Part shown: positions 3,893-63,216 of the stretch, one piece after another
Layout: the number at the start of each line of letters is the position of its first letter
Position numbering within the stretch: the stretch's first letter is position 1
Source: Acidimicrobiales bacterium
GTDB taxonomy: Bacteria > Actinomycetota > Acidimicrobiia > Acidimicrobiales > Bog-793
NCBI GenBank assembly: GCA_050015255.1
Contig: JBEKBT010000003.1
Location: 2,593 to 66,592, forward strand
Direction: 5' to 3'
DNA: 64,000 nucleotides
The notes under the pieces: model-generated
The model's database searches: none
What the model was told of the DNA's origin: nothing
What the model saw: the letters and a program-made list of their open reading frames with translations, nothing else
Program-made: the position numbers and the translations under genes

Positions 3893-4279
3893 TCAGAACT
3901 CGGTGATCGCCAAGGTGTCGGCTTGGAGCTGCTTGTACTCCGCCGAGCTCGTGATCGGCAGCATCGCCAGAAGCTTTGCCATGTTGCCGGTGACCTTCAC
4001 CCGACCCTGCATGAAGGCGGCGTTGGCGTCGAGCTCACCCTTTTGGATGCGCATGGCGTCCTCGTAGTTCTGGGTGAGCGTCACCTCAGGATCAGGCAGC
4101 TCGCCGAGCTTTGACTCCAGGAGCTTGCCGTTCTCGAGCACCCAGTAGTAGTGGATGTCGCCGTCGGGTCCGCCGGTGATCACGTACTGCAGCCTGGCGG
4201 AAGCCCCCGGTCGCTCCGGCTGTCCCTCGGCGAGCTTCTTGCCCTCGTCGAGCCACTCCTGGGTCAGCCACTTGGCCAT
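3893..4279 (-). CDS. SCP2 (sterol carrier protein 2-like) domain protein
   Basis: 128 aa. The sequence EDAMRIQKGELDANAAFMQGRVKVTGNMAKLLAM is the typical SCP2 C-terminal signature. Confidence 0.8.
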   Translation of the reverse strand: MAKWLTQEWLDEGKKLAEGQPERPGASARLQYVITGGPDGDIHYYWVLENGKLLESKLGELPDPEVTLTQNYEDAMRIQKGELDANAAFMQGRVKVTGNMAKLLAMLPITSSAEYKQLQADTLAITEF

Positions 4280-4349
4280 GTCGACCTCCTAGGTGTGCCG
4301 GTGGCATTTCCACCGCCACGCTTGCCTACACAGTGTCCGCGGGCGGATG

Positions 4350-5219
4350 CTACCGGCTGGTAGCCAGCCGCACTCCGGCGAACAGGTCGTCCTCGGGAAT
4401 GTCAGTCGCAACGAGGCTTTGCGCCAGGATGTACTCGTCGTAGGGGTGGATGGTGCGCATGATCTCGGGCGGCAGCCCGAACCAGTACTTCGACGACGGA
4501 TCGACCTGTGTCGCGTGCGCGAGCAGTGCCAGCCGGCGGATGTCCTCGAAACCTGTCAGGTCGATCGAGGTCGTGATCTCGTCCTCGTTGCCCGGGCGCT
4601 CCAGCCAGTCCTCGTCGAAGGGTGACTCGAGGCCGAGCTCGAGAAACTTCGCGTGTGTGGCCACGATCCGCGCCCTCGACCAGACCGAGTAGTAGAGCTT
4701 TGCAGACTGGTAGGGCTCCCCCGCCTCCGGGAAGGCCGCGGCATCGCCGGCGGCGGCGAAGGCCGCGACCGAGATGTCGTGAACCCGGATGTGGTCGGGG
4801 TGAGGGTAGTGCTCGTGGTCGTCGCCGTAGGTGATGACGACCTGGGGTCGCACGCGGCGGATCTCGGCCACGAGGCGCCCGACGGTCTCCTCCAGCGGGC
4901 GTGCGGCGAAGGCACGCGGGTCCGCGTTCGCCTCTGTGCCCGCCATGCCCGAGTCGCGATAGCCGAGCAGGACCAGCTCGTCGTAGCCGATGATCTCGAC
5001 GGCTTGATCGAGCTCGCGCCGACGGATCCGGGCGATGTCGGCGCGAACCTCGGCGGTGTCCATGAGAGGATTGAGGATGTCGCCTTCTTCGCCACCGGTA
5101 CAGGTCACGAGAACGGTGTGTACACCTTCGGCGTGATACTTGGCGATTGTCCCGGCACACTTTGAGGCTTCGTCGTCGGGATGTGCGTGCACGGTCAGGA
5201 TGCAGAGCTGGTCGTCCAT
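4350..5219 (-). CDS. mca: mycothiol S-conjugate amidase (LmbE/PIG-L deacetylase family)
   Basis: 289 aa. VHAHPDDEA, VTCTGGEEGDILNP, YPHPDHIRVHDISVAAFAAAGD and GEPYQSAKLYY closely track my memory of mycobacterial Mca. The MshB paralogue cannot be fully excluded. Confidence 0.75.
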   Translation of the reverse strand: MDDQLCILTVHAHPDDEASKCAGTIAKYHAEGVHTVLVTCTGGEEGDILNPLMDTAEVRADIARIRRRELDQAVEIIGYDELVLLGYRDSGMAGTEANADPRAFAARPLEETVGRLVAEIRRVRPQVVITYGDDHEHYPHPDHIRVHDISVAAFAAAGDAAAFPEAGEPYQSAKLYYSVWSRARIVATHAKFLELGLESPFDEDWLERPGNEDEITTSIDLTGFEDIRRLALLAHATQVDPSSKYWFGLPPEIMRTIHPYDEYILAQSLVATDIPEDDLFAGVRLATSR

Positions 5220-5243
5220 GGCTGGTCACGCTAACGGCACAGG

Positions 5244-5262
5244 CGAGCAACGAGGTTGCTCG
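5244..5262. promoter_or_regulatory. perfect 8-bp inverted repeat (CGAGCAAC-GAG-GTTGCTCG) in the mca/pspA divergent intergenic region
   Basis: Read directly from the sequence. It lies 42 nt upstream of the pspA ATG (5304) and 25 nt from the mca start (5219). It is a candidate operator; no binding protein is known. Confidence 0.35.
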
Positions 5263-5303
5263 ACAGGCCTTATGCTGGGATTAAGAAATCAGAGGGAGCA
5301 CAT

Positions 5304-6182
5304 ATGGGTGTGATGAAGCGCCTGACGAACATCGTCCAGGCCAAGGCAAACAAGGTTCTCGACAAGGCCGAGGACCCCCGTGAGACGCTTGATCTCTCTT
5401 ATGAGAAACAGATCGAGCAACTCCAACAGGTAAAGCGCGGGCTCGCCGATGTCGCCACGGCCAAAAAGCGCATCGAGCTCCAGGCTCAGCAGCTGCAGCA
5501 GGCGGCCGCCAAGCTTCAGAACCAGGCACGTCAGGCACTCACGCAAAATCGCGAGGACCTGGCCACCGAGGCTCTCACCCGGCGCTCCGGGATCGCTACT
5601 CAGCTCGAGGGCCTGAAGACCCAGCATGATCAACTGGCACAACAGCAGGAGCGACTCGAGGCGACCACCCAGCAGCTCCAGGCGCGCGTCGAGGCCTTCC
5701 GCACCCAGAAGGAGACGCTGAAAGCCTCCTACACGGCCGCCCAGGCGCAGACGAAGATCGGCGAGGCGGTCTCAGGCATCTCGGAGTCGATGAGCGACAC
5801 CGGCCTCGCGATGCAGCGGGCCCAGGACAAGATCGCCCAGATGCAGGCACGAGCTAGCGCAGTGGACGAGCTTCTCGCCTCGGGCACACTCACGGACCTG
5901 TCCGGGTCGTCCGACCCCATTCAGGCGGAACTCGACAGGACGGCCGCCTCGGGGGACGTGCAGCTGCAACTCGCTCAGATGAAGAGCCAGCTCAACCAGC
6001 CCGCCACCGCACCGAGCGGTGAGCTCGGCGCGGGCAATGCCCCAGCGGGAGCCTCCGACGAGCCGGTCGACGGAGAGGTCGTGCCGGACCAGCCGTCGGC
6101 TGCGGCGGCACCGGCAGCTCCCCCAGCTCCCCCAGCTCCCGCGGACCCCTTCAGCTTGGACGACGCGGGGGCCGGGTCATGA
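5304..6182 (+). CDS. pspA: PspA/IM30/Vipp1-family membrane-stress protein with an Ala/Pro-rich tail
   Basis: ATG at 5304 preceded by AGAGGGAG. MKRLTNIVQAKANKVLDKAEDPRETLDLSYEKQ... is the canonical PspA N-terminus, and the body is a long coiled coil. Confidence 0.9.
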   Translation: MGVMKRLTNIVQAKANKVLDKAEDPRETLDLSYEKQIEQLQQVKRGLADVATAKKRIELQAQQLQQAAAKLQNQARQALTQNREDLATEALTRRSGIATQLEGLKTQHDQLAQQQERLEATTQQLQARVEAFRTQKETLKASYTAAQAQTKIGEAVSGISESMSDTGLAMQRAQDKIAQMQARASAVDELLASGTLTDLSGSSDPIQAELDRTAASGDVQLQLAQMKSQLNQPATAPSGELGAGNAPAGASDEPVDGEVVPDQPSAAAAPAAPPAPPAPADPFSLDDAGAGS

Positions 6183-6457
6183 TCGTCCGTATACTGGGAG
6201 AAGGCCAGTTCGAGCTCGAAGAAAGTCAGGTCGCCTCGCTGGAAACTCTTGACAAGCAACTGTTGGCCGCCCTCGAAGCCGATGACGAGCCGACTTTCCA
6301 CGAGGTGCTCAGCCGGTTGGTTGAAAAAGTTCGGACGGAGGGAGACCCGGTCACGCCGGATCGTTTCGTGCCGTCCGATCTGGTGGTGCCGTCCGAAAAC
6401 GCGTCCCTCGCCGAGCTGCGCGACTTTCTCGCATCAGAGGACGCCGGGGAGTCTTGA
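6179..6457 (+). CDS. PspA-associated small protein (PspAA-like)
   Basis: 92 aa acidic protein (MIVRILGEGQFELEE...). ATGA overlap with the pspA stop and TTGA overlap with the htpX start. The family name is from memory of published Psp-neighbourhood analyses. Confidence 0.65.
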   Translation: MIVRILGEGQFELEESQVASLETLDKQLLAALEADDEPTFHEVLSRLVEKVRTEGDPVTPDRFVPSDLVVPSENASLAELRDFLASEDAGES

Positions 6458-7413
6458 GCCAGTTGTCGACACGTACTCGTTTTCCTGCTGATCGCGGACT
6501 CACGGCCCGCATGATGCTGACAGTCTTCCTGCTGGGGCTGCTTTACGCCGTTTTCGTCACGGTGCTCTTCCTGGTCGGGGTCAAGCTCGTCTTCATCCTC
6601 GTCATCGCCTTCGCGCTGCTCTTCGTCCAGTACTTCTATTCGGACCGGATCGCGTTGTACTCGATGAAGGGCAAGATCGTCACCCGCGAGCAGGCCCCCC
6701 AGCTGCACGGGGTGGTCGACCGCCTCTGCGCGATGGCCGACATGCCCAAGCCCCGAGTCGCGATCGCGGACGTCGACATGCCGAACGCGTTCGCGACCGG
6801 TCGCGACCAGAAGCACGCCGTCCTCTGTGTCACGACGGGCATCCTGCGACGCCTGGACGAGCCCGAGCTCGAGGCCGTGCTGGCCCACGAGCTGTCTCAC
6901 GTCGCGCATCGCGACGTCGCCGTGATGACCATCGCCAGCTTTCTCGGGATCCTGGCCGGCTTGCTCACCCGCGTGCTCCTCTACGCCGGGCTGTTCGGCG
7001 GCTTCGGCGGGGGAGGCAACAGGGGTCGAAGCGGCGGAGGGGGCATGGGCGGAGGCGGTCAGTTGGCCATTATCGAGCTGGGAATGCTCCTTTTCTCCGC
7101 AGTGATCTACGCCATCAGCTTCCTCCTCATCCGCACCCTCTCCCGTTACCGGGAGCTGGCGGCGGACCGGTCAGGGGCGATCCTCATCGGCCAGCCCCGG
7201 TTGTTAGCTCAAGCGCTCGTAAAAGTGACAGGTGAGATGTCGCGCATCCCCTCCCGCGACCTGCGGTCGGCGGAGCACTTCAACGCCTTCTTCTTCGCTC
7301 CCGCCTTCGCCAAGGGGACCAGCCTCTCGACACTGTTCTCGACCCACCCCACCCTCGAGCGCCGCCTGCAGCAGCTGACCCAGCTCGAGGCCCAGATGGG
7401 CCGCGCGGCGTGA
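6454..7413 (+). CDS. htpX: HtpX-type M48 zinc metalloprotease (membrane)
   Basis: HELSHVAHRD zinc motif, NAFATG, a C-terminal STHPTLERR motif, 4 hydrophobic segments and a Gly-rich insert (GGFGGGGNRGRSGGGGMGGGG). Confidence 0.9.
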   Translation: MSQLSTRTRFPADRGLTARMMLTVFLLGLLYAVFVTVLFLVGVKLVFILVIAFALLFVQYFYSDRIALYSMKGKIVTREQAPQLHGVVDRLCAMADMPKPRVAIADVDMPNAFATGRDQKHAVLCVTTGILRRLDEPELEAVLAHELSHVAHRDVAVMTIASFLGILAGLLTRVLLYAGLFGGFGGGGNRGRSGGGGMGGGGQLAIIELGMLLFSAVIYAISFLLIRTLSRYRELAADRSGAILIGQPRLLAQALVKVTGEMSRIPSRDLRSAEHFNAFFFAPAFAKGTSLSTLFSTHPTLERRLQQLTQLEAQMGRAA

Positions 7414-8018
7414 AGCTGTTCGACGTCCTCCTGGGTCGGACCAAGCCTGCCCAGCCCGACCTCGACCATCTCTTCGGACTCCCGGGCGCTCAGATCACAC
7501 TCGAGGCCTCTCTCGGCCTGCGCCCCACAGGCCAGGCTGGAGTCTGCTTCAAGCCGGCCACGGGACAGGAGTTCGCGCAGACGGCCACAGAGGTAGAGCA
7601 GCTGCTCGACCTCGGCGAGGGCGTGAAGATCCACGAGGAATCCGATTCCTACGGGTACCGGTGGGCCGTGATCGAGGACGACGACTTCGGCGATCTCATC
7701 AACGAGGTCCATGTCGTCAACACGACGCTCGAGGACCATGGCTGGGGACCGCAGCTTCTGTGCTCGGTCTTCGGTTTCGCACCGATCCCAGGCGGGGCAT
7801 CCGACCCCGCGGCGGCAACCGGCGCGCCCAAAGTGGCCGGGACCTACCTCGTCTACCTCTACAAGCGGGGCACTTTCTACCCGTTCGTCCCGCTCGCGGC
7901 CGCCGAGAAACGCGACTCGGAACGCGAGCGCCTGCTGAACGTGACCTTGGCCACCGACCTCGCGATGGAGCCCGACCTCGAGCGCTGGTTCCCTCTGTGG
8001 GGGCTGCCCGTCCACTGA
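7410..8018 (+). CDS. conserved hypothetical protein, PspA-operon member (PspAB-like)
   Basis: 202 aa. GTGA overlap with the htpX stop. Protein-like composition (YGYRWAVIEDDDFGDLINEVHVVNTTLEDHGWGPQLLCSVF). The family name is recalled, not verified. Confidence 0.55.
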   Translation: MKLFDVLLGRTKPAQPDLDHLFGLPGAQITLEASLGLRPTGQAGVCFKPATGQEFAQTATEVEQLLDLGEGVKIHEESDSYGYRWAVIEDDDFGDLINEVHVVNTTLEDHGWGPQLLCSVFGFAPIPGGASDPAAATGAPKVAGTYLVYLYKRGTFYPFVPLAAAEKRDSERERLLNVTLATDLAMEPDLERWFPLWGLPVH

Positions 8019-8036
8019 CGGCGCCGCGAGAACGCA

Positions 8037-8088
8037 GGCTCACCGGGGCGGGCCCACAGCCGGGAGCGGCGGGCTCACCGGGGCGGGC
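8037..8088. repeat. 17-nt direct repeat GGCTCACCGGGGCGGGC, two copies 35 nt apart
   Basis: Copies at 8037-8053 and 8072-8088. The second copy contains the stop codon (8075-8077) of the minus-strand gene. Confidence 0.6.
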
Positions 8089-9214
8089 GACGCTCGCCCG
8101 TAGGGACGAGGGCGCCGTCGCGCCGGAACGGGTCCCACGCCGGGGGCGCGCTCTTGAGGTAGGCGACGACGACACCGCAGATCATTGCCGGGTCGAGATC
8201 TGTCTCCCCGTCCGGCTCTGGCCGCATCCTGGTCACGAGGGACCCGACGCCGTCGGCTGCCCACCGCACGCCGGAGGGCTCGGCTGCGCTCAACTGCTCG
8301 GCCAACGGCGCCAGGTCCGGCCGGCGCGGCACCTGCCGGCTCACGTAACGGACCCAGCCCTCATAGCGCAGGTAGAGCTCGCAGCGGCCCTCGTGAAAGG
8401 CCAGGATCCGGGAGGCCGGCGTCGCGCTGTGCAGCGCCACCTCGTGCAGCGCAACGGCGCCGAGGCGCCCGGTTGCAGCCGCTGAGCCCGGTGTAGGCAC
8501 GGCGCCGGCCAACCGCGTGACGACGGCGAGATCGACCTCGGGCACCTCGTCTATCCGCACCAGGCCGGCGCGAAGGTCATCCAGAGAGGCGGCCAAGACG
8601 GCGTCCTCTTGCTCCCAGTATCGCCGGAAGTGCTCCGTGTGCTCGATCAGCTCGACCGCCCGCTCGAGCACGGCGCGGTAGCGGGGCCCGGACCAGCTGC
8701 CCGGCCGTTCCCCGACGCTGCCCGGCTCAGAGGCCTCGACGGCCTGCTCCCCGATCGGACCGACCGCAAAAGCGATCCGCGCCGCCTGGCGGGACCGCAC
8801 GACGCCGAAATCGCCGCAGGAGACCACCTCGACAAGCAAGCCCTCGTGGCGCAGGGCCACATCGGGCTCGGCCATGGAGAACACGGAAACGACCCCGTCC
8901 TCGTCGAAGTGGTCGTTCGTGACCGCCTCGGCCCGGCTCACAGCCGCGATCGCCGACCTGATCCCGACGCCGCCCGAGCGGCCTCGGCCACCCCGCCCGG
9001 GCGCGCCGTCACCTGGCGCGACCTCGCCCCGCGTCGCGTGCAGGAAGGCGAAGACGATCTGGGCGGAAAGGTCGCGCGCCAGTGCCGGCGGCGTCGGGCT
9101 CTGCGGCCAGTGGGAAAGCGTCAGCACCGAACCAGGACGCGCGGCGCCGTCCACGAGCACGTGCGGGCGGCCTTTCAGCTCCTCGACCGGCACGTAGGGA
9201 AGGGCCCGGCTCAC
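8075..9214 (-). CDS. conserved hypothetical protein (379 aa)
   Basis: Long ORF with non-random composition and a start 56 nt downstream of xthA on the same strand. No motif I can name with confidence. Confidence 0.55.
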   Translation of the reverse strand: MSRALPYVPVEELKGRPHVLVDGAARPGSVLTLSHWPQSPTPPALARDLSAQIVFAFLHATRGEVAPGDGAPGRGGRGRSGGVGIRSAIAAVSRAEAVTNDHFDEDGVVSVFSMAEPDVALRHEGLLVEVVSCGDFGVVRSRQAARIAFAVGPIGEQAVEASEPGSVGERPGSWSGPRYRAVLERAVELIEHTEHFRRYWEQEDAVLAASLDDLRAGLVRIDEVPEVDLAVVTRLAGAVPTPGSAAATGRLGAVALHEVALHSATPASRILAFHEGRCELYLRYEGWVRYVSRQVPRRPDLAPLAEQLSAAEPSGVRWAADGVGSLVTRMRPEPDGETDLDPAMICGVVVAYLKSAPPAWDPFRRDGALVPTGERRPPR

Positions 9215-9270
9215 CGATCGACCTTCGTCTGCCGGCCCATCGGACAGGTCGGCTCTGCGGACGTCCGCAC

Positions 9271-10062
9271 TCAGATGCCGAGGTCGACGAAGAGCGGGGC
9301 ATGATCAGAGGGCGGGTTGTCGCTCCCCATGCCTTTTCTCGCTTCCCGATCGATGAGCGCGTAGCGCACCGCGCCGGCAAGCGCCCTCGAGACGAGCGCG
9401 AGGTCGATGCGCATCCCGTGCCCTTTGTGAAAGTCGCCGGCACGATAGTCCCACCAGGAATAGAGCCCGTCGACGTCGGGATAGACGAGGCGGAAGGCGT
9501 CCACGAGCCCCCAGTCCTCGAGCTCGCGCAGGGCCGCCCGCTCCGGCTCGCTGACATGGGTGGCGCCCGCGAACTGCGAGATGTCCCACACGTCGCGGTC
9601 CTCCGGCGCGACGTTGAAGTCGCCGCAGACGGCCACCGCCTGATCTGCCGTCGTGTTCGCCGCGAGGTCGTCGCGAAGCCGCTTCAGCCAGGCGAGCTTG
9701 AGCTCGTACTGCTCGCTGCCGACGGCACGGCCGTTGGGCACATAGACGCTGGCGACCCGAACCCCCCCGCACGTCGCCGTGAGGATGCGGCACTCCTCGA
9801 TCGCGTCGGGAAGCTCCGCCGAGAAACCGGCCCGGGCCTTCTCGATCCCGACCCGCGACAAGATGGCGACGCCGTTCCAACGGCCGTTGCCGTGATGGGC
9901 GGACTCGTAGCCCAGGGCCGCGAACGCCAGGGCGGGAAAAGCGGCATCGGGCATCTTCGTCTCCTGCAGGCACAAGACGTCGGGCTGTGCGTAGCAGAGC
10001 CACTCCTCGAGCTTGCCGAGACGTGCCTTCAGGGAGTTGACGTTCCAGGTCGCGATGCGCAT
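9271..10062 (-). CDS. xthA: exodeoxyribonuclease III (AP endonuclease)
   Basis: MRIATWNVNSLKARL...DVLCLQETK...GDFNVAP...SDHAPL is the canonical EEP/ExoIII motif series. 263 aa. Confidence 0.9.
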   Translation of the reverse strand: MRIATWNVNSLKARLGKLEEWLCYAQPDVLCLQETKMPDAAFPALAFAALGYESAHHGNGRWNGVAILSRVGIEKARAGFSAELPDAIEECRILTATCGGVRVASVYVPNGRAVGSEQYELKLAWLKRLRDDLAANTTADQAVAVCGDFNVAPEDRDVWDISQFAGATHVSEPERAALRELEDWGLVDAFRLVYPDVDGLYSWWDYRAGDFHKGHGMRIDLALVSRALAGAVRYALIDREARKGMGSDNPPSDHAPLFVDLGI

Positions 10063-10176
10063 CCCGACAGCGTCGCCTGTCGGCGCCCACGACGCAACGC
10101 GGCCCGGTGCTGGGCCCCGGGCGCCTATGGGCTACAGGCCGGGGCAGGCCGCCGGGGAGCAGCGGCGCGCTGGCTG

Positions 10177-10222
10177 CCCACCTGGGTCACGGCCCACCTG
10201 GGTCACGGCCGATGGGTCACGG
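10177..10222. repeat. 16-nt tandem repeat CCCACCTGGGTCACGG (2 full copies plus 1 degenerate copy) overlapping a stop codon
   Basis: Copies at 10177-10192 and 10193-10208, with a degenerate copy at 10209-10222. The stop codon of the 767-aa gene (10217-10219) lies inside the last copy. Confidence 0.65.
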
Positions 10223-12520
10223 CAGGGAGGGACAGCTGACCGACTGGGCACCCGAATTGACGGGGAAGAGGGCGGAGTCGATCGTGCCGCAGACGACGAA
10301 GCCGACGACGTCCCACACCGTGTCGGTCGCCTGGAGCAGGTGGGGAGGGTTCAGGTACGAGAGCCGCGTGTCGTAGGAGAGCACCTGGTTGTAACCGACC
10401 CCGTTCGACATGCCGTTGAACCCGGGGTAGTAGTTGATGTTCGTGCCGTTCTCGATCAGGTTGCCTTCAACGGCGCCGCTCTCGAAATCCGGCACATAGG
10501 TCGACCCGTTCAGGGTCACGATGGCGGCGTCGGTGACGACGCCGTGCTGACCGTCACCGTACGCATTGGAGATGTCGCAGGACCAGGGCACGACGTTGGA
10601 GATCCCGGGGGGGGGAGTCGTCTCGGTCCCGTCGTCGGTGCAGATCGGGCCGTTGCCGCCGTTCGGGTGCGCGATCAACAGGTCCTCGTCCGCCAGCAGG
10701 CCCAGGACGTCGCTCGTACCCGCCTGGTTGCATGCTGGCACCGAGGACGGATTGGCGTCCGACGCGCCCCCGGAGCCGTCGGCGCACTGGTAGGTGAGAT
10801 CGCGGGAAACGACTATGTCGCCGGAGGCGGCGAGGGTGATCTGGCCGTGGAGCTCGCCCTCGATAATGGCGTCACCCTCGGTGCACTGGCTCGAGCTGGC
10901 GGAAAGGTTGTAGTAGTAGGGGTTGATGCAGGTCGCGGTGCTCGGCAGCGCGAGGTGCGAGGGGTCGACGATGCTCACCGACGGCGGCGTCTGCCAGTCG
11001 GAGTTCGCCCCTGAGGACTGCTCCGACTGGACGTAGATGACGCCGCTCTGGTTGAGGCTGGGGTTGTCAACAGGCACCGGGAGGCCTGTCACCCAGGGCT
11101 GTGACGGGCTGAAGGAGCCGCACTGGGCAGGTGCTCCCGTGCTGTAGTGGGGCTCTGTCTGCTCGCTGAGGGGGCTCCAGACGTTCATCGTGCCCCCCTT
11201 TACGAACTCGATCATCGTGGGGCCGGTGTAGAGGCAGCCGTTCCCCTTGGTCCCGTCCACATAGGAGATGAGGCCGGCCGTCGTCGAGGGGAGGTGCTGT
11301 TGGCCGCCGAGTTGCGTACTGGTGCCCGAAGGCAAGAGGGGCTGTCCCCCGCAGCCGTCATAGAAGTCGTCCACCCAGCCCTGGGGCAGGTTACCGGGCG
11401 TCAGTGCCCCTTTCCAGTTGTCCCGGTAGGACCAGGGGGAGGTCGGGGCGCCGGAGATCAGCGGCGGGTTGCCGTTGAACTGCGGATCGCCGCACAGCCA
11501 GAACTGGTCGTTCGTGTACGCCGTGCCGTTGAAGACGACCGAGCTGTTGTAGATGCCGACTCCGTAGGCCGAGCACGGGCGGACACCTGAGGGGATCTGG
11601 ATCGTCGCGCCCGCATTGGGCCAGCCCGGTGTCGAGGGCACGTTGTAGGTGATCCCCGACGTGTCGTAGTACGGCCCGTAGTAGGGGGTCCCGGCGCTGG
11701 CGGTGGCCGAGGAGTCGCCGTTTATGTCCGGGTTGGGGACCGATCCGATCGAATCGACGAAGGTGTTCTCGTCATAGGTGTGGTACTTGCACAGCGCGTC
11801 GCTCAGCGACATCGGCCCGTAGGTCGTCGTGTTGCCGTTCTGGTCGGTGTAGTTGTACTCGATCTGCACCTGGTTCATCGGCTCCGAGGTCGCCGACCCG
11901 CCCGCGGGGGTGACGGTGACGTTCGGAAGCACGCCCGGCTCGTTCGGGTCGGACAGCTCGTACTCGGAGTAGTACGAGTCGGTCAGGATGCCGGACAGCT
12001 TGAAGCTCACGAGCAGCGACCGGTATGACCAGGCACCTGGCGCTCCCGCCCGACCGGTCACCTCGATGACCATCTGACCGGCGCTGCCTCCTGACTGCAC
12101 CGTCAGGCGGCTCGGATCGGGCACGTAGTGGAACCACTCGTCGGAGCTGCCGATCTGCTTCCAGCCGGTCAGCGCCGTGTCGCCGTCGGGGGTGCCGTAG
12201 TTGTAGGCGTAATAGGAGGGCACGTTGTCGAGGTAGTTCCGGTACTCCTGCACGCCCGCTTCGGCCGCCGCCAGAGCAGCCTCACTCGAGGCGGACTGGT
12301 TCGTGGCGGCATTCTCGGCATTGACCTGCGTCGCCAGGACCGGGACGAGGATCGAGACGAGCAGCACGACGAGGATCGCCAGCACGAGCGCCTGCCCGGA
12401 CTCGTCCCGGGCGAGCCCGGCGCGCCGGGCGAGCCCGGTTGCCGCTGCACGGCGAAGCCTCCCCAGCCGGCCGTTGTTCTCACCTCGAGCATTCCTGCTC
12501 AGCGCTGACATGGTCGTCAT
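10217..12520 (-). CDS. large PilX-N-terminal-domain-like pseudopilin / putative pilus tip protein (767 aa)
   Basis: The N-terminus RDESGQALVLAILVVLLVSILVPVLA resembles the PilX_N hydrophobic segment and has no Glu5. The remainder is Gly/Ser/Thr/Pro/Asn-rich with several Cys, typical of secreted adhesin-like proteins. It starts 4 nt after the preceding pilin gene. Confidence 0.65.
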   Translation of the reverse strand: MTTMSALSRNARGENNGRLGRLRRAAATGLARRAGLARDESGQALVLAILVVLLVSILVPVLATQVNAENAATNQSASSEAALAAAEAGVQEYRNYLDNVPSYYAYNYGTPDGDTALTGWKQIGSSDEWFHYVPDPSRLTVQSGGSAGQMVIEVTGRAGAPGAWSYRSLLVSFKLSGILTDSYYSEYELSDPNEPGVLPNVTVTPAGGSATSEPMNQVQIEYNYTDQNGNTTTYGPMSLSDALCKYHTYDENTFVDSIGSVPNPDINGDSSATASAGTPYYGPYYDTSGITYNVPSTPGWPNAGATIQIPSGVRPCSAYGVGIYNSSVVFNGTAYTNDQFWLCGDPQFNGNPPLISGAPTSPWSYRDNWKGALTPGNLPQGWVDDFYDGCGGQPLLPSGTSTQLGGQQHLPSTTAGLISYVDGTKGNGCLYTGPTMIEFVKGGTMNVWSPLSEQTEPHYSTGAPAQCGSFSPSQPWVTGLPVPVDNPSLNQSGVIYVQSEQSSGANSDWQTPPSVSIVDPSHLALPSTATCINPYYYNLSASSSQCTEGDAIIEGELHGQITLAASGDIVVSRDLTYQCADGSGGASDANPSSVPACNQAGTSDVLGLLADEDLLIAHPNGGNGPICTDDGTETTPPPGISNVVPWSCDISNAYGDGQHGVVTDAAIVTLNGSTYVPDFESGAVEGNLIENGTNINYYPGFNGMSNGVGYNQVLSYDTRLSYLNPPHLLQATDTVWDVVGFVVCGTIDSALFPVNSGAQSVSCPSLP

Positions 12521-12524
12521 CTCC

Positions 12525-13397
12525 TCACTCCGGACAAGCCACGGAGGTCGACGTTGTTGTGGTGGTCGAGGTCGGCGTTGTCGCCGAGCCCCGCAAGAAC
12601 ACGACCGTGTCCAAGGTCGTCGGCTGGTCGGCGGCGTAGCCCTCGGTCGGGGTCTGCGGCCCCGCCAGGAACGTGACGTGAATGCCGACCGCGGCGATCT
12701 CGTTGATGGCGCAAGCCGGGACGGGATTCTCGATCGCGAGTGGCGTCAGGGCGGTTCCCACATAGTCGTAGTAGGTGAAGACCGGGCTCGTCTGGGTGCT
12801 GAGGGCGTAGTAGGTCGCGACCGTCCTCTGTGTGGATGATCCCGGTGTGCACGGCGAGGCCGGATGGAACGCCGTCGGAGCGTCGACAGCGGGAGTCACC
12901 GACGACCACGGCAGCGGCGGGCTTCCCGCGCCATTGGCCGGTCCGGACGCGGGCACGTCGAAGGTGATGTCGAATTGGGCGTCGTCGTGGACGGCACCGC
13001 TCGGCCTGAACCAGAGCGCATCGAGATTCGTGCAGTTCGAGCCGTAGGTGCTCGTGTTGAACCCTGCCGATGCCACTACGTCGAGCTCGGTCGGAGACGG
13101 CCCCACCTGCGCCCCGCCCGCGTCGTAGACGGCGAGCACCTGGCTCGCGCCGCGTAGGTACTGAACGAGTGTCTGGCCAGACTCGGTCTCCTGCCGGACA
13201 GCTGTGACCGAGTCCTGGGTGTTGCTCGCCTGCTGGTTGAACGAGATGAACAGCGAGGTGACGATCGTGAAAACGACGCTCAGGATGGCAAGGACGGTGA
13301 TGAGCTCGAGGGCGGTGAAGCCGCGCTCGCAGGCCATGGGGCCACGACGCGCCGCCTGGGGCCACCGCCGCTCGAGGGACCGCTGCAGGCTGTTCAT
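12525..13397 (-). CDS. prepilin-type N-terminal cleavage/methylation domain protein (pseudopilin)
   Basis: Class III signal ...CERG|FTALELITVLAILSVVF (Gly-1, Phe+1, Glu+5). The ATG at 13397 overlaps the upstream stop (ATGA). An alternative ATG at 13337 gives the classic short leader MACERG. Confidence 0.75.
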   Translation of the reverse strand: MNSLQRSLERRWPQAARRGPMACERGFTALELITVLAILSVVFTIVTSLFISFNQQASNTQDSVTAVRQETESGQTLVQYLRGASQVLAVYDAGGAQVGPSPTELDVVASAGFNTSTYGSNCTNLDALWFRPSGAVHDDAQFDITFDVPASGPANGAGSPPLPWSSVTPAVDAPTAFHPASPCTPGSSTQRTVATYYALSTQTSPVFTYYDYVGTALTPLAIENPVPACAINEIAAVGIHVTFLAGPQTPTEGYAADQPTTLDTVVFLRGSATTPTSTTTTTSTSVACPE

Positions 13398-14902
13398 GAC
13401 GCGGTCACCGGGAGGAGGCTCATCGAGCTGCACGCCGATTGCGCGGGTACCGGCGTCGGAGGAGGCGAACCTGCGCACCAGCCCTTCGGCGTCACCCACA
13501 CGTAGGCGGGGCTGACCGTCCCGCCGTTGTCGTGCGACAGGAGGTACTCCCCGAGCGGCACGCTTGTCTGACTGGTACTGGTGAGTGCGGAGAGGTTGAG
13601 CGTGATCGGAACGCCGCCCCCGGCGACCTCGGTGGCCGTCAGTGTGCTGGCAGATCCCGACACCACCTTCAGCTCCAGGGGATAGACGGGCAGATAGACC
13701 GAGACCGCGTTGCCGCTGACCGTGTCGATGACACACGGGCTCGGCGCGGGGGCGTACGACCCGTACGCAGACGGTGCACTGTCCGGCTGGTCACCGGTCC
13801 AGAGCCCGGTCACGCCCGACCACGGGAACAGCAGGAGCGAGCTGAACGGCGTGGAGCCGTAGGCGGGCCAGATGTTGCTCGAGCCGTACGCCGTGATGAG
13901 GGAGTTGTAGACCGAGATCGGGATGACGCTCGAGCTGACCGGCGGCGACACCGGCGAGGTCGGGGCTGTCGTGCAGCTGCTGCCCGGATGGGTGTACCCG
14001 AAGGTGACCGGCGTGCCGATGTCCATGAGCACGGTTACCACGTCGGGCACACCGGGCTGCAGTGAGGAGACAGGCACTGAGAGTGGGCCGTTCGGGTTGG
14101 AGTCGGCGTGCTCGTCGCTGGAGACGAGTGCCGGTGGGCCTAGGTTGCCGGCGAAGGAGATCGTGTAGTCGTAGTTGCCGTTTGCGTTGCTGACTGCGTC
14201 GAGGTTCTGGAACACGATGCAGCCGTTGCTGCCCGAGTCCTCGGATTCACTCGTCGTCGTGCCCGACGGGACCGCCGGTGGGGAGCCGGCGCCGGTCCAC
14301 TTGCCGGTCGCGGTCGCGTTCACGTCCTCGCCCGTCAAAAGGGTCGTCCCGTTGGCGCTGAGGATGCGAACAGCCAGCTCACCTGCGAATTGCTGCACTG
14401 CGCCCGCCTCGGCGGGCGAGATCTCCGTCGTCTGCACGATCGGTGGGGTGCCGCGCATTCTCGGCCAGGTCACGACAGCCGTCACGAGCCAGATCTGCTG
14501 GGCAACCGAGGCCCCGGAGGCACAGATCGACTGGTTGGTGCCCTGAGTGACGACCGTCCAACTCGTCGTGACCTTGAAATTGGTGACCCGCGCACCTGTC
14601 TCGCTCACCGGGAAGATGTTGGTCGCAGTGCCTGTCGGCAACGTCCCTTTCGAGGCCTCGAGCTGCAGGGTCTCGAGCTCCCGGGTGGCGACGTTGACGG
14701 CTTCGGCCCGAAGGTGCTCGGAGGCGACGCTGGTCTGGGCTTGGACCACGAACACGGTCGTCGGCACCAGGACGATGACGATCACGGCGATCGCGACCAG
14801 GAGCTCGACGAGCGTGAGGCCCTCGTCACCGCGCGAGGAGGCACCCTGCAACCCTCGCTTTCGCCATCCACTCGGTACTGCTCGGTCTCTCCCTCGCCGC
14901 AT
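13394..14902 (-). CDS. prepilin-type N-terminal cleavage/methylation domain protein, unusually large (502 aa)
   Basis: ...RGDEG|LTLVELLVAIAVIVIVL (Gly-1, Glu+5), followed by a Ser/Thr/Pro/Gly-rich extracellular body with paired Cys. Confidence 0.75.
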   Translation of the reverse strand: MRRGRDRAVPSGWRKRGLQGASSRGDEGLTLVELLVAIAVIVIVLVPTTVFVVQAQTSVASEHLRAEAVNVATRELETLQLEASKGTLPTGTATNIFPVSETGARVTNFKVTTSWTVVTQGTNQSICASGASVAQQIWLVTAVVTWPRMRGTPPIVQTTEISPAEAGAVQQFAGELAVRILSANGTTLLTGEDVNATATGKWTGAGSPPAVPSGTTTSESEDSGSNGCIVFQNLDAVSNANGNYDYTISFAGNLGPPALVSSDEHADSNPNGPLSVPVSSLQPGVPDVVTVLMDIGTPVTFGYTHPGSSCTTAPTSPVSPPVSSSVIPISVYNSLITAYGSSNIWPAYGSTPFSSLLLFPWSGVTGLWTGDQPDSAPSAYGSYAPAPSPCVIDTVSGNAVSVYLPVYPLELKVVSGSASTLTATEVAGGGVPITLNLSALTSTSQTSVPLGEYLLSHDNGGTVSPAYVWVTPKGWCAGSPPPTPVPAQSACSSMSLLPVTAS

Positions 14903-15049
14903 GACCGCAACCCCTCTTCGTTGACCCAGGCGACCTCTCGCTCCGCGACGCTGCAGACGGCACTGGCCGAGTGCGCGCCCGGCTCAGGAAACAATAGCAT
15001 TTATCGCGCGCCAAGCGCACACACCGTCACTCTAGGTGCTAAGGGACCC

Positions 15050-15463
15050 TCAGGCGAGCACGAACAGCAGATCCGCCTCGCACGCGACGCGGCCGCCGAC
15101 GGTGGCGACGCCGTGCCCGCTCCCGGCCCGGGCCGAGAGACGCCCGATCGAGACCTCGAGATCGATCGTCTCGCCCGGAACGACCTGGCGGCGGAACCGT
15201 GCCCGGTCGATGCCTCCGAACAACGGCAGACGGTCCTTGTAGCGCCCGTCGGCGAGGACCACCGCCGCAGCCAGCTGGGCGAGGGACTCGACCATCAAGA
15301 CTCCGGGCAGAACCGGATTGCCGGGAAAGTGGCCGGCGAAGAACTCCTCCTCGCCGGTCAGATGCCACCTGCCCCGCCCCGAGACGGCCGGGTCCAGCTC
15401 CACGATCTCCGAGACGAGGAGAAACGGAGCCCTGTGCGGGATGAGCTCCTCGATCGGGATCAT
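15050..15463 (-). CDS. fabZ: 3-hydroxyacyl-ACP dehydratase (hotdog fold)
   Basis: 137 aa. IPHRAPFLLV and FFAGHFPGNPVLPGVLMVESLAQ are the FabZ active-site signatures. The start overlaps the upstream stop (ATGA at 15460-15463). Confidence 0.85.
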   Translation of the reverse strand: MIPIEELIPHRAPFLLVSEIVELDPAVSGRGRWHLTGEEEFFAGHFPGNPVLPGVLMVESLAQLAAAVVLADGRYKDRLPLFGGIDRARFRRQVVPGETIDLEVSIGRLSARAGSGHGVATVGGRVACEADLLFVLA

Positions 15464-17274
15464 CTCGTGCTCGCCGTCGTTCGTGGGGACCTCCTCCCCA
15501 CGACCGGCTTCGGTGCCGGCACCACCTCACCCCCCACGGTGGGCTTGGGCGACGTCGACGACTTGCGGGCGGTCGTCTTCCTGACGGCGAGATTGTCCCC
15601 TCCGGCCTTTTTCGGCGGCGCCTTTGCAGCCGGCGCCTTTGCAGCCGGCGTCGTTGTCGCCCGCGCCCTCTCCGCTGGCAGTTCCTCCGGTCGGGCCTTC
15701 ACTGCCGCCTTTTTCGCTTGGGCCTTTACCGCCGCCGCCTTGCCGGCCCGGGTCCTGCCGACCACAGCCTTCTCCGCCACCGTCTTGTTCGCCGGTCGCC
15801 CTACCGGGACACTCCTGGGCGCGGCCTTCTTCGCGGCCAGGTTGATCGCCGCCGCCTTCTGGGTCGGGGTCTTCTGCGTCGCCGCCGCCTTCTGCGGCGA
15901 TGACTTCTGCGTCGCCGCCGCCTTGGTCGAGGTCTTCTGCGCCGCCGCCGCCTTGGTCGAGGTCTTCTGCGTCGAGGCTCTCGGCGTCGCGGCCCTCGGC
16001 GTCGCGGCCCTCGCCGCCGTCGCCTGCGGCGCGGGCGCCTTCCCAGCCGCCACCTTCTCCCTGGCGGTCCTTTCCGGCACGGCTTTGCCCGACACGGCTC
16101 TCTCCGGCACGGCTTTGCCCGGCAAGGCTCTCTCCGGCACGGCTTTCCCGGGCACGGCTCTCTTCGGCACGGCTTTTCCGGGCACGGCCTTCTCGGGCAC
16201 AGCCTTTTCAGGCACGGCCTTCTTCGCCGTCGGCTTCCTCGCCGGCTCCACGGCACCAGAGTCCGAGCCCTCCGCACGCTTGCGTGGCGGCCGGGCGAGG
16301 CGGACCTCGGCGGCGACGGTCTCTTCGCGGGGATGGCCCGACACCCGGGCCGTTCCCGGCAAGGCGAGCTCCGCGCCACGCCGTTGGGGATCGAGGGCGG
16401 TCAGCACGAATTCCCGACGCTGGTGGCGCTTGAGCACCTCCCGGGCACTGCGCGGCGGCGGATCGCCGAGGTTGGCAAGCGGGACATAACAGCGCATCTC
16501 ACCCACGCGCACGACCGCACCGTGGGACGTGTAGCTCTCGACCTCACCCTCGAGCTGCTCACCGAGGCGGTGCTCGGCGATGAACGAGATGAAAGCCAAG
16601 GGGTCGTTCACCGCCAGCGGGGTCGGGGTGGGCTTGTGCCGGTCACCGGAACCGACCACCGCCTTTGCCGGTGCCGTCCCGCCACCGTTCGTGTGGCGCC
16701 TCGAGGCTCCCGTGGAGGATGCTGCGACCTGCGACTTGCGGGCAGGTTTGACGACCTCCTTCGTCGCCACGGCGATCGCCTTGCTGACGCGTTTTTTCGC
16801 CTGCTCTGTCTCTCGGACGGCCTGGTGGCTGCGCGGGCCTCGAACCGGTTGGCGGGGGCTGAAGATCCATCCGATGCCGGGCACGGGCGTGGCGCCGAGA
16901 AGGCGTCTCCGCTCGAAAAGCCAGGGATGCTCGCCGTGGAACTCCTGGAACGAGTCGTTGGACAACACCGTCCCGTCGACCTTCTCGGCGACACGCAACA
17001 AGAAGGCGTCGCCGCGCCCGATGGCGCCGGCTGGGGGATGCACGTACTCGCCGCGCAGCTCAGCATCTTCGAAACGCGCCAGCTCTGAGGGGTCGATCCG
17101 GTGGGCGAAGGTGGCGTCGACGATGACGGTGATCTCGGCGTCGGGATGGTCGCGCCTCAGCTCGGCGACGGCCTCCTCGAGCTGCGCCAGGCTCGGTGAG
17201 GAGCGGCCTTCTGTGGCGATGTTGGATCCGTCGACGATGATGTGCTCGATGGGCATGTCCCTGTAGTCAAGCAC
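15460..17274 (-). CDS. Zc3h12a-like NYN ribonuclease + S1 RNA-binding domain + ~260-aa Lys/Ala/Pro-rich histone-H1-like tail (604 aa)
   Basis: Residues ~8-140 read IIVDGSNIA...ITVIVDA...GRGDAFLLRVAEKVDGTVLSNDSFQEF...W...RRLL, which aligns with my memory of the Regnase/Zc3h12a NYN core. Residues ~225-305 read GEQLEGEVESYTSHGAVVRVGEMRCYVPLANL (S1 fold). Residues 345-604 are KAVPE/KAAA/QKT repeats. Confidence 0.8.
   Translation of the reverse strand: MLDYRDMPIEHIIVDGSNIATEGRSSPSLAQLEEAVAELRRDHPDAEITVIVDATFAHRIDPSELARFEDAELRGEYVHPPAGAIGRGDAFLLRVAEKVDGTVLSNDSFQEFHGEHPWLFERRRLLGATPVPGIGWIFSPRQPVRGPRSHQAVRETEQAKKRVSKAIAVATKEVVKPARKSQVAASSTGASRRHTNGGGTAPAKAVVGSGDRHKPTPTPLAVNDPLAFISFIAEHRLGEQLEGEVESYTSHGAVVRVGEMRCYVPLANLGDPPPRSAREVLKRHQRREFVLTALDPQRRGAELALPGTARVSGHPREETVAAEVRLARPPRKRAEGSDSGAVEPARKPTAKKAVPEKAVPEKAVPGKAVPKRAVPGKAVPERALPGKAVPERAVSGKAVPERTAREKVAAGKAPAPQATAARAATPRAATPRASTQKTSTKAAAAQKTSTKAAATQKSSPQKAAATQKTPTQKAAAINLAAKKAAPRSVPVGRPANKTVAEKAVVGRTRAGKAAAVKAQAKKAAVKARPEELPAERARATTTPAAKAPAAKAPPKKAGGDNLAVRKTTARKSSTSPKPTVGGEVVPAPKPVVGRRSPRTTASTR
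15911..16225. repeat. in-frame tandem DNA repeats encoding the basic tail
   Basis: Five 30-nt periods at 16071-16220 encoding (KAVPE/G)x10. A 30-nt duplication at 15911-15940 and 15941-15970 (QKTSTKAAAx). A 15-nt duplication at about 15979-16008 (AATPR). Confidence 0.75.
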
Positions 17275-60744: not shown

Positions 60745-63216
60745 TCAGAGATCTTCCAGGATCTGGTGCAGTCTCAGCGTGACCTCTCCATAGTCCATAT
60801 GTCGATCAAATCTAACCGGGTCCCCAATGCGGACCGTGACCTTACTATGGCGCTTCGGCCACTTCGAGTGCAGGGGCACCGTCCCGAATAGACCGATCGT
60901 CTTCAGCGGTACCACGGGAGCATCCAGGTCCACGGCGAGCAGCCCTATGCCCGATTTGAACGGCTGCAGGACACCATCGGTGCTCAAGCGGCCCTCGGGC
61001 GCGATAACGACGCTCCAACCTTCATCCACGAGAGTCCCAACATACTCCATACTGGGCATATAAGGCTCAGAACGGGCGAAACCAAAGCCAGCGAAGCAGA
61101 GCCTGATGATAAAGGCCAGCACTTTATGCTGCCGCATCACATCGTCCGCCGCCGCGACTGTCAAACGCTTCCGGATACGTCTTGGTAACGCCTGATACAC
61201 CGCTGGCCCGTCGAAGTCATCGCTGTGGTTGAAGATGTACAAAGCCGGTGTGGCCAGATCGTCGAGCTTGTCGCGCCCTTCGACACTCATTCTGACCCAG
61301 ATTCCCACTATCGACCGCACAACCACTTCGCGAGTGGCGTCCCCCAACAGTCGCACCCAACGCCGGTACGGCCAGGAGGGCCGAGGAATGGGCCGCTCGG
61401 CCGGGCCGCCAGCGGCCACCAACCGCCTCAAGTCCCCCACGGTCGTGCTCTTGGTCACGTCCTCTTCCGGGACGCTGATGCCCAGTTGATCCTCAATCAA
61501 GGTGACAACCGTCAGCCTTCGCAGCGAGTCGAGGCCTAGGTCGGCCAATCGATCCGACTCCTTGATCTCTTTTCGTGGCTCGTCCAAGCTTTCCCGAATG
61601 ATGTTGTCCAGTACCTCTTCCTCCGGGGCCCTCTCCGGCGCCTTCGGCTCCTCCTCCTGACCGGTCTGATTCGCCCATTGCTGAACCTTCTTCCGGTCCG
61701 TCTTCCGCATTCGGTTGAGAGGAAATTTCGCGTCCGGCCAACGACGCCAGGCACTTATGTGCTGAAACGACTCCAACTGGCCGTTGATTGCGTCAATTGC
61801 CTGGCTGATCTCGCTATCGGAGCCGTCAGAAATGACGACGGCCACGACCTCCTCGCCATCGGGTCGCCTAACGCCAACGACGCAGACCGCAGAAAGAATC
61901 GGATAGTTGGCGGCGACAAGCTCGATGTCCTCAGGAAAGACCTTGAGGCCGCTGCTCAACACGATGGCGAACTTGAGCCGCCCCTCAATGTACAACCAGC
62001 CATCTCGCAACTGCCCAGCATCACCCGTTCTGAACCAGCCGTCCGCGGTAAACGCGTCACGGGAGGCTGTCGGACTCTGCCAGTACTCCTTGAAGACGGT
62101 GGGCCCTTTGGCTTGGATCTCCCCGTCCTCACCAATACGCAGGTCCACGTTGTCGAGCGCACGGCCCGGCGAGTCGAGACGGCGCTCGTGTAAGGGGTTC
62201 ATCGTCAAAATGGGCCCGGTCTCTGTGAGACCGTAACCCTGCAGCGCCCGGACCCCCATGCTCTCCCACGCCCTGCCGACCTCGACAGGAATCGGCGCCC
62301 CTCCGGTGATGACGAGGTCCAACCTGCGCCCCAGCTGTGAGTGCACACTCCTGAACAGTTGCCGACGGAGCGCGAACGGCAGCACAGCGGCCAACTTCGA
62401 AGCCGTCGCCAGAGCCCTGGCCTTGCCGTCAGCCGCGGCGACTTGTTGTATTCGTTTGAGCAGTAGAACCAGGAGCTGCGGAACGGCAAGGATCGTGGTT
62501 ATGTGGTATTCCTGCAGGGCGCGGCCCATAGCGATCGGCGAGACGCTCGGCACATAGAAGATACTGGCGCCGTGCGCCAGAGGTGCGACCGTGCCGCCCG
62601 TTATCTCGTACATGTGGGAAAGCGGCAACACGGACAGGAACCGCCAGTCTGGGCCGACGTTCAACACCCGAAGTGCGGCCTCGGCGTCGGCCAAGATGTT
62701 CTTCTGGCTCAGGACGACGCCCTTGGGTTCGGCAGTGGTACCTGAAGTGAACACGATCACCGCTGGGCAGTCACCGCTCAACTCAGTGGCCGGGGCCGTG
62801 GCCGGATACTCGGCAATACGCTCGTCAAGCTCGTCGAGCAAGTTGACGATGGGAAGGTTGTCGAGCTCGGGGTGCATATGCTGGTTCCGAAAGACCAGCT
62901 TCGGTCCGGTCTCGTCGATGAACCTCAGCGTCGTTGCCGGATTGCTGCCTGCGTCGATCGGCACCAGAATCGCACCAAGAAGCTGGGTGCCCAGAAACAG
63001 TTCTACCCAAGCGGGCGAGTTGTTGGCGACGACTGCGACTCGGTCTCCCGGCTGAACATCACGAGCCAGGAGGAAGTTCGCCGTTTGATAGGTCCGTTGC
63101 TGTAGCCCGCGATAGTTGAGCCTTTCAATCTGGAGGAATGGCCGTATAGTCATCGCCAGCCGTTCGTCGTGATTCGCAAAACTGGCTACAAAGTCGCCGA
63201 AATGGCGGCTGGTCAT
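60745..63216 (-). CDS. tri-domain protein: fatty-acid adenylating (ANL) domain + acyl carrier domain + PlsC/LPLAT-type glycerolipid acyltransferase domain (823 aa)
   Basis: ANL domain, aa 1-515: VFTSGTTAEPKG, QGYGLTETG, WFRTGDAG, GRLKFAIVLSSGLKVFPEDIE. Carrier domain, aa ~535-600: LADLGLDS(564)LRRL, with the Ser codon at 61525-61527. LPLAT domain, aa ~615-823: FNHSDDFD (NHx4D), FGFARS, IAPEGRLS, VVPL. Lower GC than the window average. Confidence 0.85.
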   Translation of the reverse strand: MTSRHFGDFVASFANHDERLAMTIRPFLQIERLNYRGLQQRTYQTANFLLARDVQPGDRVAVVANNSPAWVELFLGTQLLGAILVPIDAGSNPATTLRFIDETGPKLVFRNQHMHPELDNLPIVNLLDELDERIAEYPATAPATELSGDCPAVIVFTSGTTAEPKGVVLSQKNILADAEAALRVLNVGPDWRFLSVLPLSHMYEITGGTVAPLAHGASIFYVPSVSPIAMGRALQEYHITTILAVPQLLVLLLKRIQQVAAADGKARALATASKLAAVLPFALRRQLFRSVHSQLGRRLDLVITGGAPIPVEVGRAWESMGVRALQGYGLTETGPILTMNPLHERRLDSPGRALDNVDLRIGEDGEIQAKGPTVFKEYWQSPTASRDAFTADGWFRTGDAGQLRDGWLYIEGRLKFAIVLSSGLKVFPEDIELVAANYPILSAVCVVGVRRPDGEEVVAVVISDGSDSEISQAIDAINGQLESFQHISAWRRWPDAKFPLNRMRKTDRKKVQQWANQTGQEEEPKAPERAPEEEVLDNIIRESLDEPRKEIKESDRLADLGLDSLRRLTVVTLIEDQLGISVPEEDVTKSTTVGDLRRLVAAGGPAERPIPRPSWPYRRWVRLLGDATREVVVRSIVGIWVRMSVEGRDKLDDLATPALYIFNHSDDFDGPAVYQALPRRIRKRLTVAAADDVMRQHKVLAFIIRLCFAGFGFARSEPYMPSMEYVGTLVDEGWSVVIAPEGRLSTDGVLQPFKSGIGLLAVDLDAPVVPLKTIGLFGTVPLHSKWPKRHSKVTVRIGDPVRFDRHMDYGEVTLRLHQILEDL

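Follow-up and report, generated by a model that had tools for sequence, protein, structure and literature searches.

A 64,000-nucleotide stretch of an Acidimicrobiales genome (assembly GCA_050015255.1, contig JBEKBT010000003.1, positions 2,593 to 66,592; hereafter the window) raises the question of what three adjacent genes for large, pilin-like proteins are doing among housekeeping genes. The genes lie head to tail on the minus strand, and we call them g1 (13394..14902, 502 amino acids [aa]), g2 (12525..13397, 290 aa), and g3 (10217..12520, 767 aa). We consider it likely that they form an I-J-K-like (PilV-PilW-PilX) minor-pilin tip set of an actinobacterial type IVa pilus, encoded apart from the assembly genes, with g1 as a PilV/GspI-like modular minor pilin in the I position, g2 as the minor pilin in the middle (J) position, and g3 as a PilX/GspK/ComZ-like tip pilin in the K position. 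This identification follows from homology and gene order shared with genes embedded in pilus clusters, as detected by tblastn for g1 and g3 and by hhalign for g2. The Acidimicrobiales trio is then a detached, enlarged, and sometimes duplicated form of a known tip complex, and no new kind of machine.

The counterparts of these genes in other Actinomycetota sit inside type IVa pilus clusters with the general order pilB-pilT-pilC-pilA-(m1-m2-m3)-pilD-pilM-pilN-pilO. At two such loci (L017 and L018), two pilin genes are followed by genes for a 451- to 455-aa N_methyl protein, a 223- to 239-aa N_methyl protein, and a 657- to 666-aa homolog of g3, and then by PilD (identified as Peptidase_A24), PilM, PilN, PilO, and aro genes; a further locus (L035) carries the whole cluster, with pilB (T2SSE plus MshEN), pilT, pilC (T2SSF), pilA, the trio, pilD, and pilM. 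Window g1 aligns with its counterparts at L017 and L018 over more than 400 residues (tblastn, E ~1e-10), g3 aligns at full length with the third gene of the cluster-embedded trios (tblastn, E=5e-21), and g2 aligns with their middle gene (hhalign, probability 98.9%, E=1.8e-17). Judged from these alignments, each window gene has a homolog at the corresponding position of the type IVa clusters, the order being unchanged, with g2 assigned to the J slot by gene order alone. When synteny was checked in relatives, homologs of g1, g2, and g3 were found together and in this order at every related locus examined that was of sufficient length. Loci were divided according to how long their g3 homolog is, a g3 gene of at least 2.25 kb defining the enlarged form, and pilus machinery genes adjoin the trio at 11 of the 12 short-form loci with usable flanks. 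The exception (L025:7936-11632) has its trio between relA and hisS-aspS, and the contig of P0076 likewise carries a short-form trio between relA and hisS without adjacent machinery, indicating that detachment is not confined to the enlarged clade.

Within the window trio, the ATG of g2 overlaps the stop codon of g1 as ATGA, and four nucleotides (GGAG) separate the g2 stop from the ATG of g3, both junctions being read directly from the sequence. The original prediction, made from the letters of this stretch, had described just such tight packing of three consecutive minus-strand genes, together with flanking fabZ and xthA genes and Cys-containing bodies rich in Ser, Thr, Gly, Pro, and Asn, and these descriptions hold. 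According to Pfam, the trio is flanked on one side by a FabA/FabZ-like gene at 15050..15463 and on the other by an exonuclease III-like gene (xthA; 9271..10062); the five residues make up 41-45% of the trio proteins versus 26-28% of Kgd and SecA from the same window; and the predicted mature forms contain 6 (g1), 4 (g2), and 14 (g3) Cys, even numbers that fit disulfide-bonded exported proteins. Predicted mature masses are 48, 27, and 76 kDa for g1, g2, and g3, with isoelectric points (pI) of 4.1-4.3. As for size, the predicted 502 and 767 aa are correct, whereas the 291 aa given for g2 had counted the stop codon and is really 290. The proteins had also been called far larger than typical minor pilins, which is so in comparison with Gram-negative models but not in comparison with their actinobacterial homologs (~450, 230, and 530-670 aa), relative to which the window proteins are 10-25% larger.

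By sequence, g1 and g2 both show the defining features of type IV pilins, a charged leader and then a stretch of ~20 hydrophobic residues, with Gly at -1 and Glu at +5. The g1 protein is built from a 28-aa basic leader, a class III (prepilin) signal (14753..14833, minus strand; SSRGDEG/LTLVELLVAIAVIVIVLV, where the slash marks the predicted cleavage site, RGDEG/LTLVELL), a pilin module, and approximately three immunoglobulin (Ig)/CnaB-like beta-sandwich domains. In g2, a basic leader of 26 aa precedes the class III signal (13254..13334, minus strand; MACERG/FTALELITVLAILSVVFTIV, with predicted cleavage at CERG/FTALELI), and the C-terminal region carries a conserved poly-Thr stretch followed by Cys. 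PF07963 matches g1 at residues 27-46 (E=7.7e-5), as does TIGR02532, and both models match g2 at the corresponding position (E=6e-5), all above curated cut-offs and in agreement with the predicted class III signals with Glu+5 in these two proteins. Gly-1 and Glu+5 are present in all g1 homologs with an intact N-terminus, and G26, T28, and E31 are invariant in 12 of 12 aligned g2 sequences, in both families down to ~28-30% identity. Relatives do not keep the Met inside g2 that begins MACERG, and the start codon is therefore likely to be the ATG farther upstream, at 13397.

The AlphaFold2 model of g1 (predicted local distance difference test score, pLDDT, 77) contains a helix at residues 31-84 followed by a small sheet, and the region from residue ~173 to 502 is modeled as beta-sandwich domains. 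Foldseek matches of this model in the PDB are SpaC (6m48, E=5.8e-7), PitA, GBS52, and other Ig/CnaB-like pilus domains, and one g1 homolog has a CarboxypepD_reg match. On the basis of the model, g1 is a modular pilin, in which additional domains are grafted onto a pilin module as in PilB and PilC of Streptococcus sanguinis (PMC8179133, PMC9934059). Against the gspI hidden Markov model (HMM), g1 scores 14.7 bits (E=0.034), short of the curated cut-off of 44, and its homologs at L017 and L018 score 31 bits against TIGR02523 PilV (E=2e-7), below the cut-off of 52. PilV and GspI (TIGR01707) are the best NCBIfam matches of these cluster homologs, both under their curated cut-offs, and g1 may therefore be described as PilV/GspI-like through likeness and positional equivalence, which stops short of formal family membership. 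The first search for the g1 family returned 51 proteins, and a profile search of PDB sequences with this family found alpha-1 helix matches only, as did the g2 profile against solved pilins in the PDB (E=7e-5 to 1e-2). At the other end of g2 (12525-12590), every homolog terminates in a Thr-rich run (e.g., TSTTTTTSTSV), after which a nearly invariant Cys stands two to three residues before the C-terminus; this segment may serve as a linker that carries glycans and ends in a disulfide.

The N-terminal signature of g3 (12236..12397, minus strand) is the PilX-N-like segment without Glu5 that had been predicted. A basic leader leads into DESG/QALVLAILVV (G42/Q43), which lacks Glu5, followed by a hydrophobic helix and the motif ALAAAEAGVQEYRNYLD, which is shared by the entire g3 family, with a nearly invariant A82-LAAAEAG-xxxY93. 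The G/xALxxAL...A(L)AAAEAG motif typical of PilX_N is visible here, and the g3 family keeps Gly42, the hydrophobic helix, and the nearly invariant ALAAAEAG..Y.N motif. Lacking Glu5 and encoded by the last and largest gene of the set, g3 has the marks of a K-type tip pilin. Its AlphaFold2 model (pLDDT 84; predicted template modeling score, pTM, 0.82) combines a long helix (residues 41-99) with a large body that is rich in beta structure and in Cys, and the sole significant PDB match of this model is ComZ (6qvi, E=2.9e-5, probability 0.96). This whole-model match suggests that an additional domain interrupts the pilin fold, and the predicted structures of both g1 and g3 show that fold, a long N-terminal helix followed by beta-strands.

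The g3 sequence is identical to hypothetical protein ABR972_01160 of an Acidimicrobiales metagenome-assembled genome (MAG). A first search for its family returned 83 proteins, every one of them of metagenomic origin or from an Acidimicrobiales MAG. An exhaustive profile search with an E-value limit of 1e-3 returned 5108 cluster representatives (50% identity), of which 944 also passed a limit of 1e-30; most are 520-660 aa long. One shorter-form cluster, from Cryptosporangiaceae and other Actinomycetota, carries the JGI label PilX. PF14341 (PilX_N) matches 16 of 64 aligned family members (best E=6.2e-6), and DUF4900, on which a literature search gave nothing useful, matches 9 of the 64. A function is thus assigned to a very large family whose curated matches are otherwise confined to weak PilX_N or DUF4900 hits in a minority of members.

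The same evidence bears on which type IV machine the trio would serve. A Tad (type IVc) or Com-type machine in place of a type IVa pilus is suggested by a 2019 review in which Tad pili are the only ones studied experimentally in Actinobacteria (PMC6916266), by one homolog that JGI labels TadG, and by weak NCBIfam likeness of g1 and g2 to ComGE and ComGF. We regard this as quite unlikely, since the homologs are embedded in type IVa clusters with PilB, PilT, PilC, PilM, and PilN/O, the signals are of the GFTLxE and not the Flp/TadE type, and neither TadE (PF07811) nor Tad (PF13400) matches any protein of the trio or any of the 64 g3-family members.

The enlarged form of the trio is found in the window and at ~22 other non-redundant loci; a contig scan with a single protein query recovers close relatives only (70-86% identity). 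The neighborhood in this clade is a conserved housekeeping one, made up of kgd, a gene for an NYN/S1 protein, the fabZ-like gene, xthA, DUF6687, and the PspAB/HtpX/PspA genes, and the slot of the trio within it varies: before fabZ at L049, between fabZ and xthA in the window, and after xthA at L004, L016, and L050. L014 (7649-17940) holds two divergent tandem trios, one on each side of xthA. Its trio after xthA is the closer of the two to the window trio (54% versus 35% identity for g3), even though the window trio sits in the other slot.

Long basic leaders (25-30 aa) are kept in the relatives, and the reading frames are intact at more than 20 loci spanning 29-93% identity, save for apparent frameshifts in some long-read assemblies (e.g., L001 and L050). 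Comparison with six relatives gave ratios of nonsynonymous to synonymous substitution rates (dN/dS) of 0.17-0.46 for the trio, whose neighbors xthA and fabZ scored 0.09-0.15; a single g1 value of 0.97 against L021, at odds with the other five comparisons, was set aside as a probable alignment or frameshift artifact. The trio is under purifying selection and functional, and it evolves faster than its neighbors, as expected for surface proteins. These data largely refute the idea that the trio is the decaying remnant of a pilus cluster since lost. Detachment from the machinery and a dN/dS two to three times that of neighboring housekeeping genes are what such decay might look like, but dN/dS is well below 1, the frames persist, motifs and Cys positions are invariant, translational coupling is preserved, and both tandem trios are retained at L014, making relics extremely improbable. 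The original prediction had offered two readings, a minor-pilin or tip-adhesin module for a pilus encoded elsewhere and a pilin-like surface or secretion structure of unknown type. Homology to the cluster trios, the ComZ/GspK-like fold, the invariant signals, and purifying selection favor the first; the second is not needed.

One member of the enlarged clade, on an 833-kb MAG contig (L048), has a third protein that shares 44% identity with its L002 counterpart and 36% with g3. Genes beside its trio (at L048:12703-16851) encode a lipoprotein-like 161-aa protein, PilD (with A24_N_bact and A24 domains), a 628-aa Wzy_C membrane protein, and a 192-aa pilin whose N-terminus (RADEG/FTLIELLVVLLIIG) is typical of type IVa. 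The enlarged clade thus includes members with genes for a prepilin peptidase and for a major-pilin-like protein. The Wzy_C domain also occurs in the pilin O-glycosylases PglL/TfpO, and by analogy the L048 pilins may be O-glycosylated.

Several observations nevertheless weigh against assigning the window trio to the tip of a pilus. As the original prediction had stated, no Pil machinery is encoded in the 64 kb: tblastn with actinobacterial PilA, PilB, PilC, PilD, PilM, PilN, PilO, and PilT gave nothing, and Pfam scans of the ~30 largest open reading frames (ORFs) returned housekeeping genes only, including Kgd, SecA, PrfB, FtsEX, CarB, hut genes, and the PspA/HtpX cluster. A six-frame motif scan of the 64 kb found only two class III signals, those of g1 and g2. 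A further 10 kb past the right end of the window, reached through the 823-aa protein encoded at 60745..63216, is free of pilus genes, and among the 15 non-redundant enlarged-clade loci flanked on each side by 4 kb or more, 14 show no pilus machinery gene within 10 kb. A PilM profile built from seven related loci and run against 5.8 billion proteins gave no Acidimicrobiales among the 120 matches listed, which come from Frankiales, Mycobacteriales, and other Actinomycetota and are uninformative about this genome. The similarity of g3 to known pilins is also uneven, in that the ComZ match has low TM-scores (0.19-0.27) despite its good E-value, the g3-family profile matches neither ComZ nor any other PDB sequence, and window g3 itself gives nothing against PF14341 at E<=1. 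Finally, the peptidase and assembly ATPase of this genome rest on inference, and an adhesive function is a guess from composition and fold.

The missing machinery might be taken to mean that the trio no longer depends on a pilus, the machine having been lost and the three proteins kept as membrane-anchored or cell-wall-spanning surface proteins, perhaps as a short stub made up of the tip alone, or as an adhesive complex at the cell surface, with the N-terminal helices as anchors. The absence of machinery from ~74 kb around the window trio and from the surrounding 10 kb at 14 of 15 related loci, the enlargement of the proteins relative to their cluster-embedded homologs, and the stable seat among housekeeping genes are all consistent with this. 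We find it unlikely, because Glu+5 and Gly-1 are strictly kept in g1 and g2 even between distant relatives, as expected only if processing and packing still matter, and because L048 of the same clade retains PilD and a major-pilin-like gene. That loss of the machine has left the enlarged I-J-K trio, at times as two tandem copies, as an autonomous surface structure, a filament-less tip complex anchored or extruded in another way and evolving as a stand-alone adhesin, we likewise hold to be rather improbable. Minor-pilin operons away from the machine are, moreover, common in bacteria, the fimU-pilVWXY1E operon of Pseudomonas aeruginosa being one, and the orphan state alone is thus unsurprising. 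The trio locus resembles fimU-pilVWXY1E in being self-contained and free of ATPase, platform, peptidase, and alignment genes; it differs in that the trio normally lies within the cluster in other Actinomycetota, and in that its detachment in the Acidimicrobiales-type clade comes with enlargement and duplication. Gram-positive minor-pilin operons apart from assembly genes have also been noted (PMC3244431).

Returning to the tip-set assignment, we infer that a prepilin peptidase and an assembly machine are encoded elsewhere in this genome from the strict conservation of processing and packing motifs, from the gene content of L048, and from the type IVa pilus genes reported in another order of Acidimicrobiia (PMC12008989); a literature search on Acidimicrobiales with pilB or pilT gave nothing specific. 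Cleavage of the trio by the peptidase, the order of assembly, and location at the tip are likewise proposed by analogy with I-J-K complexes and with the S. sanguinis PilABC complex (PMC9934059), on which we modeled the following mechanism. The trio proteins would be inserted in the membrane through their N-terminal hydrophobic helices and cut after the conserved Gly by a PilD-type prepilin peptidase, whose gene adjoins the trio at L017, L018, L048, and other loci. g3, without Glu5 and with its bulky beta-rich body, would enter first and cap the filament, with g2 and g1 stacked below it through their alpha-1 helices. The g3-g2-g1 tip complex would then prime polymerization of the major pilin by a PilB/PilC/PilMNO machine encoded elsewhere, and the pilus tip would display the large modules of g3, acidic and rich in disulfides, together with the Ig-like g1 stalk, most likely as an adhesin. 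In a monoderm envelope without a secretin, the size of such tip modules would not be limited by a channel.

Whether the tip would serve adhesion or DNA capture depends largely on how far the resemblance to ComZ of Thermus thermophilus is taken. ComZ belongs to the GspK-like pilins, its pilin fold being interrupted by a large beta-solenoid; it binds DNA, pairs with the adjacent minor pilin PilA2, and, as has been argued, can be accommodated nowhere but at the tip of the pilus (PMC6561018). g3 resembles ComZ in having a predicted GspK-like pilin domain with a very large beta module and no canonical Glu5, in being encoded beside a smaller minor pilin, and in its proposed tip position, and ComZ is its only significant structural match, all of which could point to a tip for DNA capture in natural transformation. 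The two proteins differ in that g3 is ~210 aa longer and has no detectable sequence similarity to ComZ, and in that ComZ is the DNA receptor of a diderm whereas mature g3 is strongly acidic (pI 4.05; 14 Lys plus Arg versus 66 Asp plus Glu). Given this acidity, the low TM-scores, and the absence of comEA and comEC from the Pfam scans of the ~30 largest window ORFs, we think DNA capture unlikely; the acidity of mature g3 is also our reason for favoring adhesion, a preference we hold weakly.

Like GspI-GspJ-GspK of type II secretion and PilV-PilW-PilX of type IVa pili, the trio consists of three consecutive genes in I-J-K order, of which the first two encode a class III signal with Glu5 and the last, the largest, encodes a PilX_N/GspK-like N-terminus without Glu5, and capping and priming of the filament would be the shared role. 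Unlike these sets, it has no H-type (FimU/GspH) gene and no PilY1, its proteins are two to four times larger, only the generic N_methyl HMM reaches its curated cut-off, the predicted g3 insertion is beta-rich where that of GspK is alpha-helical, and the host is a monoderm and hence without a secretin. The S. sanguinis PilABC complex is formed by three operon-encoded minor pilins, one without Glu5 and two large and modular (PMC9934059). It shares with the trio a monoderm type IVa setting, a three-minor-pilin operon with one subunit lacking Glu5, and two pilins of >50 kDa with modules, including an Ig-like domain, on a pilin module, modeled as an adhesive tip complex (PMC9934059, PMC8179133). 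The S. sanguinis proteins have no sequence homology with the trio, however; there the subunit without Glu5 is the small, I-like one, the modules are vWA and lectin domains, and the genes lie inside the pil locus. Weak N-terminal HMM likeness to Verru_Chthon cassettes C and D (TIGR02599, TIGR02596) and to HpsC recalls other large pseudopilin-like cassettes away from machinery, but the scores are far under the cut-offs (22 versus 70 bits; 20 versus 256 bits), the likeness is confined to the alpha-1 helix, and the phyla differ from that of the trio.

If the assignment is correct, type IVa pili of Actinomycetota would carry a conserved three-gene I-J-K-like tip set with a ComZ-like K subunit and an Ig-stalk subunit in the I position, extending to this phylum the idea of a minor-pilin tip complex as the functional end of type IV filaments. 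In peat-bog Acidimicrobiales, it would point to pilus-tip adhesins as fast-evolving, duplicated surface determinants.

The 147-nt intergenic region 5' of g1 (14903..15049, minus strand) is locally AT-rich (GATAAATGCTATTGTTTCC) in a window of ~67% GC and is probably the promoter region of the trio, although it contains neither a sigma-70 consensus nor an intrinsic terminator consensus; no riboswitch and no Rfam family was matched in the trio and its surroundings. On the xthA side, the window order Band_7, YdjC, PIG-L, PspA, HtpX (M48), PspAB, DUF6687, xthA (1782-10131) is kept at L004, L016, L049, and L050 and is a stable synteny anchor of the Acidimicrobiales lineage. Upstream of fabZ, the minus-strand gene at 15460-17274 encodes a protein with an NYN ribonuclease domain and an S1 domain, whose C-terminal half (~250 aa) is rich in Lys, Ala, and Pro, contains repeats such as KAVPEKAVPEKAVPGKAVP and AATQKTSTKAAA, and weakly resembles the histone-H1-like protein HC2 (26 bits, cut-off 40). 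Farther away, a minus-strand gene at 23183-25714 encodes a sedolisin/kumamolisin-type protease of ~840 aa (Pro-kuma_activ and Peptidase_S8), probably another secreted protein; in its codon-position GC (GC1 0.64, GC2 0.59) the gene resembles the pilin genes more closely than the housekeeping genes. The 823-aa protein encoded on the minus strand at 60745-63216 is an AMP-binding/PP-binding/acyltransferase fusion, and exact copies of it in 59 public sequence blocks, one of them a contig of >1 Mb, show repeated sampling of the population of the window or of very close relatives.

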